Shown here one piece after another: positions 861 through 53,875 of a stretch of DNA of 64,000 bases. Under the pieces are notes generated by a model, which was not told the origin of the DNA, did not search any database, and saw nothing but the letters and a program-made list of their open reading frames with translations. The first letter of the stretch is position 1, and every line of letters starts with the position of its first letter. Origin of the DNA: Eubacteriales bacterium (GTDB lineage: Bacteria; Bacillota; Clostridia; Oscillospirales; CAG-272); the NCBI GenBank assembly GCA_045658925.1, contig JAZOVV010000070.1, forward strand, positions 5,526 to 69,525, given 5' to 3'. Position numbers and translations under genes: made by a program.

Positions 861-3800
861 GGCGCGGCAGCAACCTGCACCGCTCCTCAAATCTGTACCG
901 TATGTAGCGTAGTACTCTCCCCTGCTCACGGTCACGCTTGGGTAGCACCCACCTGCTTGGCTCCCCAAACCTGCACAACATGTGGTGCAACCCAAGGCGA
1001 AATCGGTGAGCACAACTTCGACAGCGCCGGTGTTTGCGGCACTTGCGGTAAAGTAACCGTAACAATCACTTTCCAAAGCGGAAACAGCAACGGCAACGAT
1101 GAAATCCTTCCCGCCATTTCCGGTTTTGCAGGCGATGCACTTCCCTCCATTCCCACTCCCACAAAGCCAAATTGCAGCTTTGGAGGTTGGTATACCGACG
1201 AGGCTTGCACGAATGCCTTTAGCGGAACCACCTTTAGCGCGTCTTTGACGCTTTATGCAAAGTGGACTTCCACTGTAAGCACAAGCAACGCGATTACTGT
1301 ATTGAGCTACTACGCCAATGGTAGTAACATGAGTTGGGACTATGCTGCTCCTATTAAACTAGCCATTCAGGCCGCAAATTATCCCGACGTAGTCTGTGTG
1401 CAATTATCGGGTGAGAGATGGAGGACTTTCACTCCTGATGGTTACACCGCGTCTTCGTTTAATAATAAATCAGAGAACACCAGGAACCTCGTGATTTATT
1501 ACAAGACCGACAAGTTCTCGGTAGTTGCCGGTAGTGGTAACACTTATTTTAACTACGTTGTTCTGAAAGACAAGAACGGTACTTCGTTCGCTGTCGTTAA
1601 CGCCCTATTTGAAACCGTAACAGAAGAGACCAAACATAATGAACTATGGGGAAGAATCAACGGCTTTTGGAATGACACAAACCGCGGCCTTATGCCTGTA
1701 ATTATAGCCGGTGCCTTTGGCAACAAAACGACTACCGATAGCATTGCTTACACCGGTCTGACCGGGGACTCCCGATTCGTTGATACTTCCAAGACTGCAA
1801 AGTCCATCACAGCTACAAACACTCCCCGCACCGGTGATTACGTCTTTGCTTCTTACCATATGCAATATTCGGTTGAAAGCTACAAGGTTTTAGACAAACA
1901 AAACACCAGCTGGCCGATTCTCGTCAGTGTAGCTATCCCCAAGGTTAGTTGTTCTCACCTCCTCGCAAAGACAGCAGCAGTTGATGTAACCTGCACGACC
2001 GCGGGCTGCAAGGAATATTACACCTGCACAAAATGCGGTAAGATTTTTGCCGACGCACAAGGTGTTGTTGAAACTACCGTAGCAGCTTGCACCATTCCTA
2101 CTCCCGGACGACACACGGCAGGCACACCTGCAACCTGCACCACCCCGCAAACCTGTATCAGATGCGATTACGTATTCCAGGAGGCGCTCGGCCACAATAT
2201 CATTATCGATAAAGCCGTTGCCGCTACCTGTACCACAACCGGTCTTACCGAAGGCCAACATTGCTCCAGATGCGACGGTGAAACCGTAACACAACAGGTT
2301 CTCGATGCTCTCGGCCACAATGCCGGAGCCGAGGCAACCTGCACCACCCCGCAAACCTGTACCAGATGTGGCCACGTACTCCAAGCCGCTCTCGGTCACG
2401 ACATCGTCATCGACAAGGCAGTTGACGCTACCTGCGAAACAAGCGGTCTTACCCATGGCTATCATTGCTCCAGATGCGACGATGCAACCGTAGAACAACA
2501 AGTTACCGATGCTCTCGTCCACAAGGCCGGAGCAGCGGCAACCTGCACCACCCCGCAAACCTGTACCAGATGCGGCCACGTGCTCCAGCCTGCTCTCAAT
2601 CACAACATCGTTATCGATGAGGCCGTTGCCGCTACCTGTACCACAACCGGTCTTACCGAAGGTTCTCATTGCACAAGATGCGATGACCTAACCGTAGAAC
2701 AACAGGTTATCAAGGCTCTCGGCCACAACATCGTCATTGACGAGGCCGTTGCCGCTACCTGTACCACAACCGGTCTTACCCGAGGCTATCATTGCTCCAG
2801 ATGCAATGATGAAACCGTAGAACAAGAAGTTATCGAGGCTCTCGGTCACAACATCGTCATTGACGAAGCCGTTGCCGCTACCTGCACCGCAACCGGTCTT
2901 ACCCAAGGCTCTCATTGCTCCAGATGCGATGATGAAACCGTAGAACAAGAAGTTACCAATGCCCTTGATCACAACATCGTCATCGACGAGGCAGTTGCCG
3001 CTACCTGCACCGCAACCGGTCTTACCCAAGGCTCTCATTGCTCCAGATGCGACGGTGCAACCGTAGAACAACAAGTTACCAAAGCTCTCGGTCACAACTA
3101 CGTCTGGGTAGTTGACGTTCAGCCCACCTTTGAAGCTGAAGGTGTTATGCATAAGGAATGTACAGTTTGCCACAGTACACGCAACGAAAACACTTCCGTA
3201 GATAAGCTTGCTTGCAGCCACGATCTTGCAAAGACAGAAGCAGTCGAGGCAACCTGCACAACTGCGGGCAACAAGGAGTATTACACTTGTTCTCTGTGTG
3301 AAAAGGTTTACTCCAATGCAGAGGGTACTCTTGAAACTACCCAAGAAGATTGCGTAATCGATGCTCTCGGCCACCAGGCCGGGGCATCGGCAACCTGCAC
3401 CACTGCTCAAACCTGTATTAGATGCGACCACGAATTCCAAACCGCGCTCGGTCACAACGAATTGGGCACCGTTGCTCACGTTGACGCAACCTGTACCAAA
3501 AACGGTGTAACAGGCGGCAATTACTGTGATCGCTGCAACGACGGCAAGGCAGCGGCTGAAGCAATCATTGAAAAACTCGGTCATAACGCCGACGGCTCTA
3601 TTCCTCACGTTGATGCGACCTGTACCCAACCCGGCGTAGTAGGCGGCACTTACTGTGACCGTTGTAACAGAGGTAAGGAAGCAGCCGAGAAGGTCATTTC
3701 CGCAAAGGGACACACCGCAGGCGCAACCGCAACCTGTACCAACGCTCAAACCTGTACCGTATGCGGTGCGGAAATCACCGCAGCTCTCGGTCACAACTAC

Positions 3801-6800
3801 AACAGAACGATCACTCACATTGATGCAACCTGCACCGAAGACGGTGTAACAGGCGGCACTTACTGCAGCCGTTGTAACGATGGCAGAGCAGAAGCCGGAG
3901 TTGTCCTTGAAAAACTTGGTCATAACACCGATGGCTCTATTGCTCACGTTGATGCAACCTGCACCGAAAACGGTGTAACAGGCGGTATTTACTGTAACCG
4001 TTGCAACAACGGCAAGGCAACAGCCGAAACCATCATTATAAAACTCGGTCATAACGCCGAGGGCTTTGTAAAACACGTTGATCCAACCTGTATCGAAACC
4101 GGTGTAACAGGCGGCATTTACTGTGACCGTTGTAACAGAGGTAAGGACGCAGCGGAAGCAGCTATCCCCGCTACCGGCCACAACGATTTGGGCAACGTTA
4201 ATCACGTTAATGCAACCTGCACCACATCCGGTATTGCCGGCGGTAAGTATTGTACCGTTTGTGATTACAACAAGGATGCAGCCGGAGCAGTTATCCCTGA
4301 AAAGGGCCACACCACAACCGAGGCTGCAACCTGTACCACCGCTCAAATCTGTACCGTATGTTATACACAACTCGCCGCCCCCCTCGGTCACACTTGGAAA
4401 AATGCAACCTGCACAGCTCCCCAGACTTGCTCTGTATGTCATGCAACCCAAGGTGAAGCTATCGATCACCAACTCAACAGTGCAGGCGTTTGCAGCATGT
4501 GCTCTCAAAGCTTTATGAGAACAGTCAAATTCCTTAATGGAAACATGAACACCGGCACTCAAATCGCCGAACCCGTTTCCGGTCTCGTTGGCGAAGAAAT
4601 CCCCTTCCCCGCTCCCCAAATGAGCAACTACAAAATTGTTGGTTGGTATCTCGACGAGGCTTGCACGAAGCCCTTTAACGAAACCACCTTTAGCGAGAAT
4701 TTGACACTTTATGCAAAGTGGGATTCCAACCCAACAGAGCAAACAACTGTATTGAGCTATTACGGCAATAATAGTAGCTGGACCAACGACGACGGTCCCG
4801 GTAAGCTTGCCATTAAAGACGCAAGTTCTCCCGACGTAATCTGCTTCCGAAAAATGGGATCGGGTTGGAAGACAATAACTGTTACGAATTACACCGCTTC
4901 TTCCCAAAACAAAAACACAGAGAAATTTATAACTTACTACAGAGCCGACAAGTTTACAGAAATCGACAGCGCGTATACCGGTGATTATAGTTATATTATT
5001 CTGCGACGCATAAGCAACGATACTCTGTTCGCTGTCGTTAACGTCCTATTTGAAAGCGGAACAGAAGAGACGAAACTTGCGAAGCTACAGGAAGGACTCA
5101 ACAATATTTGGAATAAAAACGGTCTTATGCCTACGATTATCGTCGGCGACTTTGGTAGCGCTACGACGACCGATAGCGCCGCCTACAAGGGGCTGACCGA
5201 AAACTCCCAATTCGTTGATGCTTCCAAGGTTGCAAAGTCAATCACAGGGGCGAGCAATACCGACCCCGGTCATTACGCATTTGCTTCTTACCATATGCAA
5301 TCTTCGGTTGAAAGCTACAAGGTTTTAACGGAGCGAAATGGCAAAGATCCGGTTCTTGTCACTGTAGCTCTTCCCAATGCTTGCGCACTCATAAAGACAG
5401 AAGCAACCGCTGCAACCTGTTTGGCTATGGGTAACAAGGAATACTACTACTGCTCTACTTGCGGAAAGATTTACCTTGATGCCATGGGTACTCGCGAAGT
5501 TACCGCGGCGGATTGCATGATTCCTGCTCTCGGCCACGATTGGACTGACGCAACCTGCACCTCTCCCAAGACCTGCTCCACCTGCGGTGTAACCGAAGGC
5601 GTAGCTCTCGACCACGTTTGGACAAATGCCTGCGATATCACATGTAACAACGATTGTGGTACCACCCGCATAGTCGAGCACGATTATGAATGGGTAATCG
5701 ATACTCCTCCCACCGTCACAACCGAAGGTGTTAAGCACGAGGAATGTACGGTTTGCCACGTAAAACGCAGTGAATACACCCCCGTAGATAAGCTTGCTTG
5801 CTCCCATGCTCTCGTAAAGACAGCAGCAACCGCTGCAACCTGCACGACCACAGGTAACAAGGAATATTACACTTGTTCCATCTGTAGAAAGGTTTACTCC
5901 GATGCAGAGGGTACCCTTGAAACTACCGTAGAGGGTTGCAAAATCGCTGTTCTCGATCATACTTGGGTAAATGCAACCTGCAATACTCCCAAGACCTGCT
6001 CCGTTTGTACTACAACCGTAGGCGAGGCTCTCGGTCACTCTTGGGTAGAGGCAACCTGCACAGCCCCCAGAACTTGCTCCGTTTGCCATGCAACCCAAGG
6101 TGAACCTATCGCCCACAACATCAATGATGCAAGCATTTGTACCCTTTGCGGCGGATATTTCCTGAGAACAATTCATTTCAAGGGCGGAAAGCTGTCGTCC
6201 GGCACATACGCCTACGATAACACCCAAATCGCTGCCTCTATTTACGGTTTGGTCGGTGAGAAATTCTCCTACCCCGAAATCACTCTTCAATTAAAGGGTT
6301 ACAACTTTGCCGGTTGGTGTACCGACTACGCTTGCACAAAGTCCTACACAGGAACCACCTTTAGCGAGGATATGACACTTTATGCAAAGTGGGTATCCAA
6401 TGCAAATCAAATCGTCACTGTAATGAGCTTTAACGTTAAGGTTCACGGACTTTTTGAGAGTAGCCGAACCGACCTTGTTGTAGGTACCATTCGTGACGCT
6501 AATCCCGACGTATTTGGCGTGCAAGAGGATGATAGTCTCTGGGTGACCTCGTTGAGAAGCGAATTTAAGAACGAGTATACCATTGTTGAAAAAAGCTCAG
6601 GCTCAAATGAATCCTGCGCAGTCTTCTACCGCACAAGCATGTTTACCTGCCTTGAAAGCGGTACCAAGTGGCTCTCCAACACTCCCGACAAAGCATCCAA
6701 GTATTCCTACACCGAAGGTGGAAAGACTTACACCGAAAACTACAACCGTATTATGACTTACGTTGTACTGCAACGCAACGACGGTGCAAAGTTCCTTTAC

Positions 6801-39792: not shown

Positions 39793-39869
39793 GTGCCTTT
39801 AGCTCAGCCGGATAGAGTGTTTGGCTACGAACCAAAAGGTCGGGGGTTCGAGTCCCTCAAGGCACGCCA
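39793..39869 (+). tRNA. tRNA-Arg (anticodon ACG), CCA encoded
   Basis: Cloverleaf folded by hand: acceptor GTGCCTT/AAGGCAC, D-arm GCTC..GAGT, anticodon stem TTTGG/CCAAA with loop CTACGAA, T-arm GGGGG-TTCGAGT-CCCTC, discriminator G plus CCA. Length 77 nt. Confidence 0.95.
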
Positions 39870-39870
39870 A

Positions 39871-39917
39871 ACAAAAGAAGGATACCCAAACGGGTATCCT
39901 TCTTTTGTTTCGTTTTG
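39871..39917 (+). terminator. Intrinsic terminator after tRNA-Arg
   Basis: ACAAAAGAAGGATACCC AAAC GGGTATCCTTCTTTTGT followed by TTCGTTTTG. Confidence 0.85.
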
Positions 39918-40007
39918 TCTTTATGACGCAGAACCCCGCAAATTTCCGCTCGCGGAAATTTGTTATAACGTGCGCATCGTGTCTAAAGCATTCCTGTGCA
40001 TTATACG

Positions 40008-40090
40008 CACGTTTGGGTTCTGAGTCCCTCAAGGCAGTTATCCCCTATGTTACACGTTTGGGTTCTGAGTCCCTCAAGGCAGTTATCCCT
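40008..40090 (+). repeat. Two tandem 38-nt copies (45-nt period) of a pseudo tRNA-Arg 3' end
   Basis: CACGTTTGGGTTCTGAGTCCCTCAAGGCAGTTATCCC at 40008 and 40053. The core GGGTTCtGAGTCCCTCAAGGCA equals the tRNA T-arm/acceptor GGGTTCGAGTCCCTCAAGGCA with one inserted T. Confidence 0.85.
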
Positions 40091-48305: not shown

Positions 48306-48571
48306 CCCTTTTTGCAAAAAAATTCTACCTTTTATTAAATTTTTTTAATAAAACAAGGCAAAAACGTGTGCTCGCACGCTTTCTTTGTGCAATTTTGTCC
48401 TTGTTCGACACCGCTCGACAGAGAGTGGCATATTCTAATAACAAAAGCTCCACGCGCCAGAATATTCCACCCGAAAACTTTTTTGGATGGCGTTTAAGCC
48501 CCCGACTTTGTTGGAAACAATAGTATCAACAAAGCCCAACGAGGAGCAAACAAAAGAAAGGAAGCGTGACA

Positions 48572-49060
48572 ATGAGTGTCAAACGCGGAGATATTTATTA
48601 TGCAGACCTGAGCCCCGTGATAGGCTCGGAGCAAGGGGGATTGCGCCCCGTACTAATTGTGCAAAACGACATCGGCAACCGATACAGCCCCACCGTCATA
48701 GCGGCGGCGATTACTTCACGAATGAGCAAAGCAAAGCTCCCTACACACATCGATATTTATGCAGGCGAAGTCGGACTCACCAAGGATTCGGTCATTCTCT
48801 TGGAGCAGATACGTACGCTGGATAAACGACGCCTGAAAGAGAAGATGGGACACCTTGACGACGAGGTCATGAACCACGTCAACACGGCAATTGCCATCAG
48901 CTTTGGCCTCGGCACACCCGAAGAAGACCTCGCCGCACGCGCAATGATGCAACAAATCAGTTATACCCCTCACCCTGCCCCGACGATGCCTGCGGCAAGC
49001 GCAACGACCACCAACCAACCTGCCGCAGCGGTGAATGAGCAGCCAACGGTACAAGGTTAA
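48572..49060 (+). CDS. mazF: MazF/PemK/EndoA-family endoribonuclease toxin with an extra C-terminal tail of about 45 aa
   Basis: [31 protein letters not shown]...[10 protein letters not shown]...LPTHI...[17 protein letters not shown]. After ..AISFGL comes an A/P/T/Q-rich extension. No antitoxin-like ORF upstream. Confidence 0.85.
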
Positions 49061-52083: not shown

Positions 52084-52150
52084 AAGGCTATGGGAGAGTT
52101 CCCATAAACGGCATCTCCCCTAACATGACAATGAAAGGAAATTGAAAACT

Positions 52151-52876
52151 ATGTCTGTTCAGTTTGCAAAAGACGAAAAAGTCATTAAGTCATTTGACTA
52201 TGCTACCGTTGGCTACAACAAAAGAAAAGGTCAGTACGACACCTTTAAAAGCCTGATTGTTACCAATAAGCGCGTAATTCACGAATCGGTAAACGATAAG
52301 CGCAACAACGAAATCATTCTTCGCCAAGAGATGCCCGTTGCCGATGCAAAATACGTAAAGACCACAATGGGCAAGACCTCGAACCCCGCATACCTGTTGC
52401 AGGCACTCCTGTTTGCCATTATCGCGGCAGCGGCAGTTTTTGTTTCCACCCTTGATTTTGCAGAGAAGTTCTACATTGCGTTCCTGGTTCTGGCTGCTCC
52501 CTTTGCAATTCTCACCTTTGTAAAATTGGCTGCTTATTTCTCCAGTTGCACCAAAGTGGTTAGTTTCTCCATTTTCACCGACCACGTTGTAACCCCCGTT
52601 ATCTGCACCGCGGCAGTGGAAACCGAAAACAAGGAAACAGAAGGCAAGAAGAACACCAAGAAAGACCCCTCTCTTGAAATTCGCGTAAACGCAGACGTTG
52701 CACGCGAAATCGCAGACGGACTCGGTGCTGCCATTCTCGATGCTATCAACTACAAGGAAGAAGCTCCCGCTCAAGAAATTGAGGAAGCTATCCCCGCGTT
52801 TGCAACCGTAAAAACCGAAGAAACTCCCGTTGACGCTCCCGTAGCCGAAGAGGAAGAGATTGTTGAAGAGATATAA
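52151..52876 (+). CDS. Hypothetical membrane protein with an N-terminal PH/GRAM-like region and an acidic C-terminus
   Basis: ORF with two central TM spans. The N-terminal EKVIKSFDYATV...LIVTNKRVIHES resembles bacterial PH-like domains (weak). The start is ATG 52151 or TTG 52142. Confidence 0.55.
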   Translation: MSVQFAKDEKVIKSFDYATVGYNKRKGQYDTFKSLIVTNKRVIHESVNDKRNNEIILRQEMPVADAKYVKTTMGKTSNPAYLLQALLFAIIAAAAVFVSTLDFAEKFYIAFLVLAAPFAILTFVKLAAYFSSCTKVVSFSIFTDHVVTPVICTAAVETENKETEGKKNTKKDPSLEIRVNADVAREIADGLGAAILDAINYKEEAPAQEIEEAIPAFATVKTEETPVDAPVAEEEEIVEEI

Positions 52877-52894
52877 TTCCATAACACCACAAAA

Positions 52895-52922
52895 AAGGAA
52901 GGACAAACGTCCTTCCTTTTTC
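52895..52922 (+). terminator. Intrinsic terminator
   Basis: AAGGAAGGAC AAAC GTCCTTCCTT followed by TTT. Confidence 0.8.
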
Positions 52923-52938
52923 TGCTTGGCGCCGATTT

Positions 52939-53200
52939 GTACGGGATTCTGAACCAAGCATCGATTGAAAATCAATCGATGCGCAAATTTGCTGCGCGAA
53001 TTCGCCGCGAGCGCGCTTTGCGCGCACAAGATTTCTCAAGACCGGTACGTTTCACCAAACGAAAAGGAGCGTACAGGATTCTGAACCAAGCCTCGATTGT
53101 AAACAATCGAGGCGCGAATTTGCTATGCAAATTCGCCGCGAGCGCGCTTTGCGCGCACAAGATTTCTCAAGACCGATACGCTCCACCAAACGAATAAGGG
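52939..53200 (-). repeat. Two tandem structured repeat units of about 131 nt downstream of tRNA-Ala, each ending in a pseudo tRNA-Ala 3' end
   Basis: Units start (plus strand) at 52939 and 53071. Each has GCGCGC-AAA-GCGCGC, GCGAATTTGC-loop-GCAAATTCGC and a 10-bp hairpin with compensatory changes. GGTTCaGAATCC(T/C)GTAC(GCTCC) mimics the tRNA T-arm/acceptor with one inserted A. Confidence 0.85.
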
Positions 53201-53238
53201 GTGCCGTTCGGCACCCCTTATTCGTTTGGTGGAGCGTA
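53177..53238 (-). repeat. Perfect 29-bp inverted repeat (4-nt loop) that includes the tRNA-Ala 3' end; the inner part acts as the tRNA terminator
   Basis: TACGCTCCACCAAACGAATAAGGGGTGCC GTTC GGCACCCCTTATTCGTTTGGTGGAGCGTA. The right arm's last 12 nt (53227-53238) are the ACGCTCCACCA end of the tRNA. Confidence 0.9.
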
Positions 53239-53302
53239 CGGGATTCGAACCCGTGGCCCCAACACTGCCAGTGTTGTGCGCTCCCAACTGCGCTAACGCC
53301 CC
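53227..53302 (-). tRNA. tRNA-Ala (anticodon GGC), CCA encoded
   Basis: Folded by hand: acceptor GGGGCGT/ACGCTCC with the G3:U70 alanine identity pair, D-arm GCGC..GCGC, anticodon stem CAACA/TGTTG with loop CTGGCAG, T-arm ACGGG-TTCGAAT-CCCGT, A73 plus CCA. Length 76 nt. Confidence 0.95.
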
Positions 53303-53319
53303 GCCTGTTTGACACAGTT

Positions 53320-53348
53320 ATTTTATCACACTTTGGCGCAAATGTCAA
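53320..53348 (-). promoter_or_regulatory. Promoter of tRNA-Ala
   Basis: On the minus strand: TTGACA (53348-53343), 17 nt, TGaTAAAAT (TAAAAT at 53325-53320). The tRNA 5' end lies 18 nt downstream. Confidence 0.65.
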
Positions 53349-53380
53349 GTGTTTTTTGTCGGCAACTAAAAATTCTTGTG

Positions 53381-53875
53381 TTACAGTATCTTTTGATACG
53401 CCAATCTTTCATCGCCGTTTTCAAGATAGATAATTCCGCAATACTGAAATCCGCGCTTTTGGAGTGCGCGTTGCATAGGCAAATTATCGCGATGTGTATC
53501 GATGCGCAAATTATGACATTGAGAGAAACACTCGTTTATACAATACCCAATGATGCCTCTCCCTTGCTCCGCCACGGCAATGCGGTGTATAACGCCATAC
53601 GGTGCATCATTTAGCCACGAACCGTCATAAATTTTCGCATACGTCGGCTCGCCATCAAGCGAGAACATAAACGCAGCTACAATTTCGCCGTCCTCTTCGG
53701 CTACGTAGCCAACGCCTTTTTTCATATCCTCTCGTGCAGTGTTGATGTTGGGGGTTCCCTGATTCCATTGATTGGTATTTCCACTCTCTTTCATAAAAAG
53801 CTTTGCCCTCTCATAAATCTCGCCAATGCGAGATAGGTCTGCTTCTGTCGTTTTTCGAATCAACATAAATAACAA
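53381..53875 (-). CDS. GNAT family N-acetyltransferase
   Basis: VIHRIAVAEQGRGIIGYCINECF...IDTHRDNLPMQRALQKRGFQYCG acetyl-CoA-binding core. Confidence 0.85.
   Translation of the reverse strand: MLFMLIRKTTEADLSRIGEIYERAKLFMKESGNTNQWNQGTPNINTAREDMKKGVGYVAEEDGEIVAAFMFSLDGEPTYAKIYDGSWLNDAPYGVIHRIAVAEQGRGIIGYCINECFSQCHNLRIDTHRDNLPMQRALQKRGFQYCGIIYLENGDERLAYQKIL

Follow-up and report, generated by a model that had tools for sequence, protein, structure and literature searches.

The tRNA-Ala gene in the DNA that we have analyzed (a stretch of 64,000 nt from an Eubacteriales bacterium, which we call the window) is followed by two tandem units rich in hairpins. These units belong to an undescribed family of structured modules, which trail tRNA genes in a few uncultured rumen and gut Clostridia. 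There is, in our opinion, about an even chance that they are RNA modules co-transcribed with the tRNA, whose arrays are resized by unequal recombination. The features of the tRNA-Ala locus are the following:

53320–53348, minus strand: sigma-70-type promoter for the transcription unit of tRNA-Ala (TTGACA and TAAAAT 17 nt apart, the −10 preceded by TG; 11 of 12 matches).
53227–53302, minus strand: canonical tRNA-Ala(GGC), with G3:U70 and an encoded CCA (ARAGORN; Rfam RF00005, 65 bits).
53177–53238, no strand: perfect palindrome with 30-bp arms (100% complementary; −58.2 kcal/mol, z = −13.8).
53066–53188, minus strand: unit 1 (covariance model R1, 154.9 bits), with a' (53177–53188), the conserved linker TCTTGAGAAATCTTGT (53157–53172), the hairpins P2 (53142–53156), P3 (53114–53136) and P4 (53090–53113), and T* (53066–53087).
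53058–53065, minus strand: TTTTCGTT, probably left over from a second hairpin A (its 3' arm), by comparison with the related sequences L004 and L020.
52939–53057, minus strand: unit 2, distal and partly decayed (covariance model R1, 132.8 bits), with a'2 (TGGTGAAACGTA, 53046–53057), the linker (53026–53041), P2 (53011–53025), P3 (52983–53005), P4 (52958–52982) and T*2 (52939–52955).
52891–52921, no strand: strong bidirectional intrinsic-terminator hairpin, AAAAAGGAAGGAC GTTT GTCCTTCCTTTTTT, with perfect 13-bp arms.

The two units of about 131 nt had been described in an earlier note made from these letters alone. Tandem Repeats Finder detects them as one array (52939–53199, period 131, 2.0 copies, 90% matches), and a second repeat search agrees. 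The three near-perfect hairpins which the note ascribed to each unit are indeed found in unit 1, where P3 (GCGAATTTGC-ATA-GCAAATTCGC) is perfect. P2 (GCGCGC-AAA-GCGCGC) is the same in both units, but P3 of unit 2 (GCGAATTCGC-GCA-GCAAATTTGC) fits the description only loosely, with one C.A mismatch and one G.T. Two paired positions distinguish P4 of unit 1 from P4 of unit 2, and in both cases the partner has changed as well, as had been noticed. T*, a pseudo T-loop and 3' strand, closes each Ala unit. It reads GGTTCAGAATCCTGTACGCTCC in unit 1 and GGTTCAGAATCCCGTAC in unit 2, and its counterpart in tRNA-Ala is GGTTCGAATCCCGTACGCTCCACCA; the extra A after TTC reported for the unit copies is present in both. 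An 8-bp helix (GGAGCGTA/TACGCTCC) had been proposed to close the hairpins into a cloverleaf. Unit 1 does contain it, the only one of the two window units to do so, but it is not a conserved feature of the family: It is 65–71% paired across units, without a G.U bias; type-B units lack it, and in Trp-type units it is weak or missing.

Unit 1 folds with −60.2 kcal/mol (z = −7.3), while unit 2 folded alone has z = −1.6. The minimum free energy (MFE) structure of unit 1 also pairs the GG of the linker with the CC closing the T-like loop. We have rejected this pairing, since the GG varies (GG, GC, GA, AG) and its partner is invariant. The unit motifs do not occur again in the 64 kb, where shuffled sequences give an expectation of 0 matches. 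In L004 the units are longer, 163–170 nt, and each has its own copy of hairpin A. Compared with these longer units of related genomes, the second hairpin A of the window would have lost its 5' arm and loop by deletion.

The palindrome joins the tRNA to unit 1. Three pieces make it up: the 12 nt at the end of the tRNA (TACGCTCCACCA), CCA included, then the terminator-like hairpin A (53189–53226), and finally a' (TGGTGGAGCGTA), which is the exact complement of the tRNA-Ala 3' end. a' plays a double role, as 5' strand of the closing helix and as 3' arm of the palindrome; the earlier note under-described the second of these. In the MFE structure of the full transcript, the palindrome displaces the acceptor stem of tRNA-Ala. 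The promoter is the only promoter-like site within 52700–53500, and its layout is also found in L001, L004, L022, and L037. The terminator, which was missed by a simple terminator scan, closes both the transcription unit formed by the tRNA and the units and the convergent gene at 52142–52876, which codes for a membrane protein.

Such an arrangement might suggest a stack of terminators or insulators, whose hairpins merely bolster termination and shield the tRNA 3' end between convergent transcription units, the tRNA-like pieces being by-products of local duplication. The location between a tRNA and a convergent gene, the terminator-like hairpin A, its repetition in every L004 unit and the bidirectional last hairpin would all fit. 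Nevertheless, we consider this explanation unlikely: P2–P4 lack U-tracts, and the simple terminator scan does not report any site within the units. Termination does not require strongly conserved linkers and T-loop copies. In L028, L035, and L038 the element precedes a co-oriented gene or a promoter, not a convergent gene. Finally, the match with the neighbouring tRNA, found for four tRNA species, would be left unexplained.

The second tRNA of the window also has a trailing element, which was overlooked in the earlier note:

39793–39869, plus strand: tRNA-Arg(ACG) (ARAGORN; Rfam).
39870–40081, plus strand: type B element, whose core aligns with the type-B units found behind tRNA-Ala in L013 and L029.

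This element consists of a terminator hairpin (39870–39909), a hairpin-rich core (39910–40014) and two copies of GGGTTCtGAGTCCCTCAAGGCA (40015–40036 and 40060–40081). GGGTTCtGAGTCCCTCAAGGCA corresponds to tRNA-Arg from the T-loop to the 3' strand plus one T, which is placed as the extra A in the Ala units.

A search for homologues, suggested as a check when the units were first noticed, has revealed a family in related genomes. Our sample covers about 10 lineages, all of them metagenome-assembled. Units are found behind tRNA-Ala(GGC) in at least six related uncultured lineages of Oscillospiraceae and Clostridia. Ala-type units occur in L001/L002, L003–L008, L019/L020, L022, L024, L028, and L033, with covariance-model scores of 117–155 bits. 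Trp-type units are present in L035 and L049, a Ser-type unit in L038 and an Arg-type unit in the window. A tRNA adjoins the units in these related genomes wherever the upstream flank is in the sequence. The number of tandem copies behind tRNA-Ala is variable: one in L022, two in the window and in L005, at least four in L019/L020 and at least five in L004. L004 and L005 code for an identical GNAT protein, yet they differ in copy number (at least five versus two), which is therefore polymorphic. No tRNA-Ala without a unit was recovered among the related genomes; L035 and L036 lack the tRNA altogether at that locus. At the Trp locus a FliB-like gene adjoins the tRNA. Most homologues of this gene lack the tRNA, and only L049 gave a second Trp-type unit.

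A module begins past the terminator-type hairpin of the tRNA, and its parts have a fixed order: a 5' arm (types A and C), the linker UUUUGAGAAAUC, P2, P3, P4 and a terminal copy of the tRNA, which comprises the T-loop and the acceptor strand on the 3' side. An extra nucleotide follows UUC in the terminal copy of types A and B. A characteristic feature of the family is that its ends match the adjacent tRNA. At the Trp, Ser, and Arg loci the end of each unit copies the 3' half of its own neighbour. A direct pseudo 3' half is found 140–235 nt downstream of all the tRNA species of this clade that we have examined, with scores of 28–46 compared with at most 17 in upstream controls. The Ala-A, Trp, and Ser types also have an inverted copy of the 3' end, at a distance of 37–44 nt downstream (scores 24–28, compared with at most 14). 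Many units open with the exact reverse complement of the last 12–14 nt of the tRNA, which gives a perfect helix of 24–30 bp across the terminator hairpin. In five lineages the arms of this perfect palindrome are 30, 29, 26, 24, and 30 bp long, in spite of differences in hairpin sequence. The inverted copy is a true complement and not the 5' strand of the tRNA: G3.U70 of tRNA-Ala becomes A-U, and U6.G67 of tRNA-Trp becomes C-G.

The core of the units is 78–93% identical between genomes, while four-fold sites of the GNAT gene are only 40–68% identical in the same genome comparisons. Hairpin A plus a' is 56–84% identical. The linkers, which are single-stranded, are conserved as much as the stems. 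In a covariance-model alignment of 20 units, 91.6% of the cells are paired and 15 pairs have changed on both sides. None of 500 shuffles matched the observed value on any of five measures, a strong result which rests on an alignment fitted to the model. With an unfitted alignment the observed score was reached by 6 of 500 shuffles and the other measures by 33–150 of 500. Pairing falls to 20–49% when the partner is slid by 1–3 columns. The power of these covariation tests is limited by the 84% identity of Ala-type units and the small number of independent lineages. The Trp-type unit does not fold better than its shuffles (z = −0.5).

Wobble pairs are found preferentially on one strand. On the tRNA-sense strand, P2, the split T-stem, P3, and P4 contain 40 G.U cells versus 4 A.C cells, and of 18 distinct full-length units, 16 keep one G.U in P3. 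In L001, L022, and L013 the wobbles of hairpin A are U.G or G.U and never A.C. Compensatory changes in helices and wobbles biased to one strand are general features of a structured RNA, and the units have both; one alignment out of the two had been fitted to the model. The a:a' part of the palindrome is perfect and has no G.U, a pattern that would fit templating at the DNA level at least as well as selection at the RNA level.

The units might also be the neutral debris of a local duplication which took in a piece of the tRNA gene, and would then have neither a function nor a family. Decay is in fact visible in unit 2 and other distal units, as shown by the C.A mismatch, the loss of the closing helix and the truncated 3' copy. 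This explanation is extremely improbable and is already contradicted by the ends matched to each neighbour, by homologues in at least six lineages and behind four tRNA species, and by a core which is better conserved than four-fold sites and has compensatory changes.

Another alternative is that the units are hairpin repeats acting as DNA, similar to REP/BIME, MITE, or IS200/IS605-PATE. A trans-acting transposase specific for single strands would recognize the folded DNA, and its target behind tRNA genes would be the region of the hairpin or of the T-loop. Each unit has several perfect or near-perfect palindromes besides the large one with 30-bp arms, inverted repeats of 12 nt (TGGTGGAGCGTA...TACGCTCC) stand at the ends of unit 1, and the tandem arrays are intergenic, between convergent genes, variable in copy number and apt to break assemblies. 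The G.T conserved in P3 and the ratio of 40 to 4 would be mismatches in DNA hairpins, and the conservation of single-stranded linkers would not be expected. No Y1/HUH or DDE transposase is found within about 12 kb, the terminal inverted repeat is not conserved (the termini are 65–71% paired and unbiased), a target-site duplication of the usual short size is absent and the 64 kb have copies at two tRNA-linked loci only. We give little credit to this possibility. REP/BIME and the repeats of type III antitoxins do resemble our units in being tandem, intergenic, non-coding, rich in hairpins and variable in number. Unlike REP/BIME, which measure about 35 nt and are dispersed, the units have 130–250 nt, are found only behind tRNA genes in the sequence examined, have ends templated on the neighbouring tRNA and no adjacent RAYT gene. 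In contrast with type III toxin-antitoxin systems, no toxin gene adjoins the array, which is followed by the terminator and the convergent membrane-protein gene; a MazF-type ORF (48566–49060) lies 4 kb from the array and is type II. CRISPR, type III antitoxin repeats and small ORFs were rejected on anatomical grounds: The unit lengths (129–138 nt) do not follow multiples of three, and spacers are lacking.

The reading that we prefer, RNA modules co-transcribed with the tRNA, is based on the constraint and strand bias described above and on the organization of the locus. A strong promoter precedes tRNA-Ala and a strong terminator is found only past the last unit. The modules, which have no promoter of their own and lie between both, would be produced by an RNA polymerase that passes the first hairpin. 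Their anatomy, the existence of a family, the variable copy number, the sequence constraint, the strand bias and the match with the adjacent tRNA are observed facts; we infer that the modules are transcribed, processed and functional, and that they work as RNA from the tRNA-sense strand. In the read-through transcript, the 5' arm would pair with the 3' end of the tRNA, including CCA, and the resulting perfect duplex of 24–30 bp would rival the acceptor stem. This duplex could be a stem for processing of the RNase III type or for quality control, and the conserved core with its T-arm mimic would be released or retained as a stable structured RNA. An excellent U-tract comes after the first hairpin at the loci of tRNA-Trp and tRNA-Ser, where read-through may therefore be rare and the modules poorly transcribed. 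Arrays would expand and contract by unequal recombination between direct repeats, the tRNA 3' half and its copies. Homologous cores are found behind different tRNAs with ends that match each neighbour, which suggests that the module has moved among tRNA loci and that its ends were re-templated on the target tRNA.

Two further points count against an RNA role. It leaves the matching of the ends to each new tRNA unexplained, and a tRNA 3' end followed by an insert and then by a second 3' end is what site-specific integration classically leaves behind. Integrative elements which target tRNA genes, and their gene-less derivatives (CIMEs), are bounded by attL and attR repeats of the tRNA 3' end. 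The units share this topology: Direct repeats of the tRNA 3' segment (T and T*) flank the insert at the Ala, Trp, Arg, and Ser loci. The tRNA is intact, and the insert behind it closes with a direct copy of the tRNA, from the T-loop as far as the 3' end. Tandem stacking and the presence of related inserts at different tRNAs are also shared. They differ from CIMEs in their small size (130–250 nt) and lack of genes, with no recombinase found within about 12 kb, in the 1-nt T-loop insertion of their distal repeat, in the exact inverted copy of the 3' end beside the terminator and in the strong constraint on sequence and structure of their interior, with an RNA-type wobble bias.

Stacked att-flanked remnants were one of the two interpretations offered in the earlier note. 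In a more explicit form, the units would be miniature gene-less elements, attP-like circles of about 130–250 bp, put into tRNA genes by a T-loop-specific recombinase encoded elsewhere. The element would bring a new tRNA 3' end with its terminator and leave the displaced original 3' end at the far side. Repeated integration would produce the arrays, and the additional base in the T-loop would represent a scar of the crossover, which alters spacer length and locks the element. Several observations agree with this scheme, which we regard as possible although not probable. In L001, L004/L005, L022, and L029 the distal copy reads through CCA into the trailer. The final terminators of L004, L020, and L029 are similar to one another and not to the hairpin adjacent to the tRNA. 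The Ala, Trp, and Arg types share the position of the insertion within the T-loop. Related elements with different targets would be expected to show homologous cores at different tRNAs, with matching ends. In L013 the block of tRNA and unit is inverted, a unit is found beside a different, non-Ala tRNA in L033, and copy number is polymorphic between the two assemblies with an identical GNAT protein.

The att topology and this polymorphism are the part of that interpretation which stands. Three features are not accounted for. Recombination at att sites does not predict an exact inverted copy of the tRNA 3' end, which would have to be created again for each target; at one syntenic locus, the conservation of the core greatly exceeds that of four-fold sites; and the G.U bias on the tRNA-sense strand points to selection on RNA. 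Other objections may be added. The Ala-type end kept in L033 beside a non-Ala tRNA implies that the repeat there is no duplicate of its neighbour. An Ala-specific element integrated into tRNA-Trp would give a chimeric tRNA, but the Trp, Arg, and Ser tRNAs are intact. An empty tRNA-Ala site has not been found among the related genomes, and a circle of 131 bp is very small for recombinase synapsis. The claim that there is no integrase nearby is correct for about 12 kb on each side, where a Pfam scan of the larger ORFs (all those of at least 150 aa, plus one of 148 aa) shows no integrase, transposase, or reverse transcriptase. We have not detected relatives in phage and plasmid collections by blastn. 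Matches of three motifs in viral contigs are due to chance within coding regions or are unconfirmed by the covariance model.

A further possibility, less probable than integration of this kind, is that the modules are a mobile or self-propagating RNA/DNA element specific for tRNA genes, both of whose ends are re-templated on the target tRNA at each locus. One end may be the inverted copy of the 3' end and the other the direct copy from the T-loop onward, with the extra T-loop base marking the junction. The choice of target may then be programmable by base pairing or templated synthesis, instead of depending on an att site recognized by a protein.

The other early interpretation, a family of tRNA-like non-coding RNAs, holds in part. 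Homologues and compensatory changes support a family of RNAs, but the units are not tRNA-like. Neither ARAGORN nor RF00005, even at E values up to 10, detects them as tRNAs; only tRNA-Ala and tRNA-Arg are found. The T-like loop UUCAGAAU has 8 nt instead of 7, and a T-stem of 5 bp is not formed: Local pairing is limited to GG/CC, and the lower three pairs require the GCG upstream of P3, which makes a split stem. The alanine identity pair is also absent, since GGAGCGT/ACGCUCC in unit 1 gives A3-U70. The Rfam search that had been proposed did not find any family above threshold. At gathering thresholds and at E values up to 10, the Ala and Trp loci only give tRNAs and hairpin noise (miRNA models, STnc320 and tmRNA_permuted).

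Among known tRNA-like RNAs, the tRNA-like domain of tmRNA, including permuted two-piece tmRNA, and RNAs similar to YrlA/Y RNA share with the units a T-arm-like hairpin directly before the acceptor 3' strand, and CCA in some units. Permuted tmRNA also has the same gene order (acceptor 3' strand, CCA, hairpin, acceptor 5' strand), which explains a weak match to RF04321 (21.6 bits, E = 0.023, with a gathering threshold of 47) covering only the tRNA T-arm, the hairpin and a'. In contrast to tmRNA, the units have A-U instead of G.U at 3:70, an 8-nt T-loop and an acceptor-like helix which is not conserved. ARAGORN finds no tmRNA in them, and they contain no tag reading frame and no pseudoknots. They do not match YrlA or Y RNA in Rfam, and the scan of ORFs over about 12 kb shows no domain of the Ro/Rsr type. 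Some 3' external transcribed spacers of tRNAs are regulatory RNAs, such as 3'ETS-leuZ of E. coli. The modules are predicted to resemble them as functional RNAs within the trailer of a tRNA transcript, dependent on the tRNA promoter. Unlike these spacers, they are much larger, with multiple helices, in tandem and past a terminator-like hairpin, and they have copies of the tRNA 3' end in both orientations. A full-text literature search gave no description of such elements.

A functional tie to the upstream GNAT gene, suggested by the idea of a tRNA-acetylating toxin, was rejected because L019 has the tRNA and its units without GNAT, and close GNAT homologues occur without the tRNA. The distant homologues P0069, P0075, and P0048 are not syntenic, and an exact-sequence look-up of the GNAT protein of the window gave no record.

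If the modules are functional RNAs, they would form an undescribed class of structured RNA linked to tRNAs, which pairs with the 3' end of the co-transcribed tRNA and partly mimics it. They would point to a novel layer of tRNA maturation, quality control or decoys in a major group of rumen and gut Clostridia. If they are mobile, they would be the smallest tRNA-targeting elements seen so far, and the question would be how both ends come to match every new tRNA. In either case, the units have practical consequences, they break metagenome assemblies at tRNA loci and give rise to spurious ORF calls. Many contigs end within an array, and in L004 a spurious gene of 135 aa has been called across it.

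The tRNA-Ala array has the following surroundings:

53875..53381, minus strand: end of the GNAT acetyltransferase gene, upstream of the tRNA-Ala promoter
53348..53320, minus strand: near-consensus promoter, TTGACA-17-TAAAAT with TG, upstream of tRNA-Ala
53302..53227, minus strand: tRNA-Ala(GGC)
Directly after tRNA-Ala, minus strand: terminator-type hairpin (hairpin A), then two repeat units
52891-52921: strong bidirectional terminator hairpin, after the second unit
52142-52876: convergent membrane-protein gene, whose end adjoins the final terminator

Tandem Repeats Finder reports 52939-53199 as 2.0 copies with a period of 131 and 90% identity. Within the window, the unit motifs are confined to this array, with 0 matches expected from shuffles. 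The sequence details listed in the earlier note are all found here. Its near-perfect hairpins are so overall, but the second hairpin of the distal unit is imperfect, with one C.A and one G.T. Compared with shuffled sequence, the proximal unit has a far more stable fold (z = -7.3), while the distal unit does not (z = -1.6). Mechanical ORFs of 62-102 aa span the units. About 4 kb away, an ORF with a strong PemK/MazF toxin domain is present (48566-49060, plus strand, E = 3.4e-37); a link to the repeats is not evident.

A perfect palindrome with 30-bp arms extends across the tRNA 3' end (53177-53238, z = -13.8). Its 5' arm includes the last 12 nt of mature tRNA-Ala, CCA too, and its outer 3' arm is TGGTGGAGCGTA. 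The same TGGTGGAGCGTA had been described as the 5' strand of a helix closing the three hairpins into a cloverleaf-like junction; the strand is indeed present, but its role as a palindrome arm was under-described. When the full transcript is folded to minimum energy, the palindrome helix forms and displaces the tRNA acceptor stem.

Relatives were sought in two ways: from contigs encoding close GNAT homologues, and by scanning genome and metagenome collections for the pseudo-T-loop motif. The sample covers about 10 lineages, every sequence being metagenome-assembled. The GNAT protein assigns the window to uncultured Ruminococcaceae/Oscillospiraceae/Clostridia from rumen and gut metagenomes. Both approaches recover the same arrangement of tRNA-Ala and units in several lineages. 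Among these comparison loci (L-numbers), L022 has one unit after tRNA-Ala, L005 has two, L019/L020 at least four and L004 at least five. Their period is 163-170 nt, because every unit retains its own copy of the hairpin; between the two units of the window the hairpin has been deleted, leaving TTTTCGTT as a remnant. The GNAT protein is identical in L004 and L005, while the number of units is different. The last unit of several arrays finishes with the full tRNA 3' end, GGTTCAGAATCCCGTACGCTCCACCA.

Many contigs stop 200-450 nt past the GNAT gene, within the array, which is typical assembler behaviour at repeats. Contigs L001, L002, L006-L009, L013, L036 and L037 end inside or just before arrays, and scaffolds L003 and L004 have N-gaps at them, so the true copy numbers are probably underestimated. 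In L004, the source annotation has a 135-aa gene across the array (3483-3890), almost certainly spurious. In L013, the entire block of tRNA-Ala and a type B unit (2982-3236) is inverted relative to the GNAT gene as compared with the window and other genomes. The motif scan found only four MAGs and one chance match in the genome collection, and three contigs and chance matches in the metagenomes; a search of viral contigs, phages and plasmids for the units gave no match. Judging by these sequence searches, the family is narrow in distribution.

A covariance model built from 15 Ala-type units picked up diverged units behind tRNA-Trp in two genomes, one in L035 and one in L049. These units retain the conserved linker TTTTGAGAAATC, helix P2 with an A-rich triloop, helix P3 (GCGA..TTTGC/GCAAA..GC; in L035 its loop holds an additional branch) and the GGCTT ahead of the T-like loop. 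Their helix P4 has the GCCGAGA...GAGGC form found in L001 and L022. The ends are those of the neighbouring tRNA: the Trp units start with GGCAGGGGCAGAA, which is exactly complementary to the 3' end of tRNA-Trp, and finish with GGTTCtGAGTCCTTCTGC, which copies the T-loop and 3' strand of tRNA-Trp but has one inserted base where the Ala units have their extra A.

Elements behind tRNA-Ser and tRNA-Arg were first spotted by eye, and a systematic scan followed. In L038, tRNA-Ser(GCT) (3899-3990) is followed by an element of about 250 nt (3650-3900, minus strand), which we call type C. It contains a terminator, then, beyond a 1-nt bulge, a stretch exactly complementary to the tRNA-Ser 3' end, a hairpin-rich core of ~200 nt and a T-arm copy without insertion, which shares sequence with the -35 promoter box of the following gene. 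In the window, tRNA-Arg(ACG) (39793-39869) is trailed by an element at 39870-40081 (plus strand), made up of a terminator hairpin, a hairpin-rich core and two copies of GGGTTCtGAGTCCCTCAAGGCA. The core is of type B, aligning with units of that type that follow tRNA-Ala in L013 and L029. The GGGTTCtGAGTCCCTCAAGGCA copies, which repeat tRNA-Arg from the T-loop to the 3' strand with a T inserted, come after this core with a 45-nt spacing (40015-40036 and 40060-40081); an inverted copy of the tRNA 3' end is absent from this element.

A direct pseudo 3' half is found 140-235 nt downstream of every tRNA species of the clade examined, with scores of 28-46 versus 17 or less in upstream controls. The Ala (type A), Trp and Ser types also have an inverted 3'-end copy 37-44 nt downstream. 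This copy is genuinely complementary to the 3' end and does not simply repeat the 5' strand of the tRNA. In it, G3.U70 of Ala and U6.G67 of Trp are "corrected". One Ala-type unit stands behind a different tRNA, whose 3' end it does not match (L033, 1-224, plus strand). This tRNA, cut by the contig start, is apparently Gly(CCC), with anticodon loop CTTCCCAAG and 3' end CACCTGCTCCA. L014, from a more distant Clostridia genome, has a different arrangement downstream of tRNA-Ser(GCT) (1212-1470, plus strand): a hairpin-rich stretch of ~170 nt between two direct copies of ACTTGAACCCGAGAGGG, which is antisense T-arm-like, preceded by GTTTTGAGAGGG, which resembles the type A linker. This could be a distantly related element that runs the opposite way.

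The GNAT four-fold sites of the compared genomes are only 40-68% identical, yet their unit cores have 78-93% identity, so the core is either under selection or replaced by transfer and not neutral debris; neutral duplication is effectively excluded. The hairpin and a', the complement of the tRNA 3' end, are 56-84% identical between the same genomes. RNAalifold finds helices P2, P3 and P4 again and suggests one more, of 3 bp, in which GCG immediately before P3 pairs with CGU immediately after the T-like loop; this would be a T-stem into which P3 and P4 have been inserted. One-sided changes in this helix all retain pairing, and Trp units have GUG at the corresponding nucleotides, as in the tRNA-Trp T-stem. 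Covariation is modest on the unfitted alignment because there is little variation. With the alignment fitted to the model, which leans towards the structure, and including Trp units, 15 pairs are changed on both sides, and none of 500 shuffles matches the observed values.

Counted on the tRNA-sense strand, departures from Watson-Crick pairing in P2, the split stem, P3 and P4 comprise 40 G.U cells versus 4 A.C cells, and one P3 G.U is kept in 16 of the 18 distinct units of full length. In three lineages, hairpin A contains wobble pairs but no A.C. The closing helix proposed earlier does not behave in this way: it is only 65-71% paired, with no wobble bias (12 G.U versus 15 A.C). We take these patterns as a sign that an RNA transcribed from the tRNA strand is under selection, except for the duplex between a' and the tRNA 3' end. 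This duplex is perfect wherever it is long, which could be explained equally by templating at the DNA level.

We give an even chance to the units being RNA modules made together with the tRNA, in arrays resized by unequal recombination. They have no promoter of their own, and the tRNA promoter lies on one side of them and the sole strong terminator on the other, so they are most likely made by read-through of the first hairpin. RNA polymerase would include them in the tRNA precursor, where pairing of the module's 5' arm with the tRNA 3' end would lengthen the first hairpin to a duplex of 24-30 bp, which could plausibly serve as an RNase III-type stem for processing or quality control. The conserved core and T-arm mimic would form a structured RNA acting with a partner, and unequal recombination would expand and contract the arrays. 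That they are simply a stack of terminators is improbable, and we are equally doubtful of DNA hairpin repeats of the REP/MITE/PATE kind; both are weaker than the two main readings.

The main rival, also suggested in the earlier note, is that of gene-less mini-elements integrating at the T-loop, which would account for the direct repeats, their stacking, their presence at different tRNAs and the common position of the extra base. Nevertheless, the inverted 3'-end copy, the intact non-Ala tRNAs and the strand-biased constraint are left unexplained, and no recombinase was found within 12 kb; we consider it rather unlikely. The RNA and integrative readings are compatible, as the units may first have arisen through insertion and then been kept as RNA.

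No Rfam 15 family matches the units. The permuted tmRNA model gives a weak match, due only to the order of T-arm, CCA, hairpin and complementary strand. The units lack the defining features of tRNA, tmRNA, YrlA, REP/MITE and type III antitoxin repeats. They share the topology of tRNA-integrated elements, but so far neither a recombinase within 12 kb nor an empty tRNA-Ala site has been found. Full-text literature searches found no description of such tRNA-trailing elements. Among known kinds, we class them as tRNA-linked structured RNAs or tRNA-targeted mini-elements, whose unusual feature is that the neighbouring tRNA serves as the template for both their ends.
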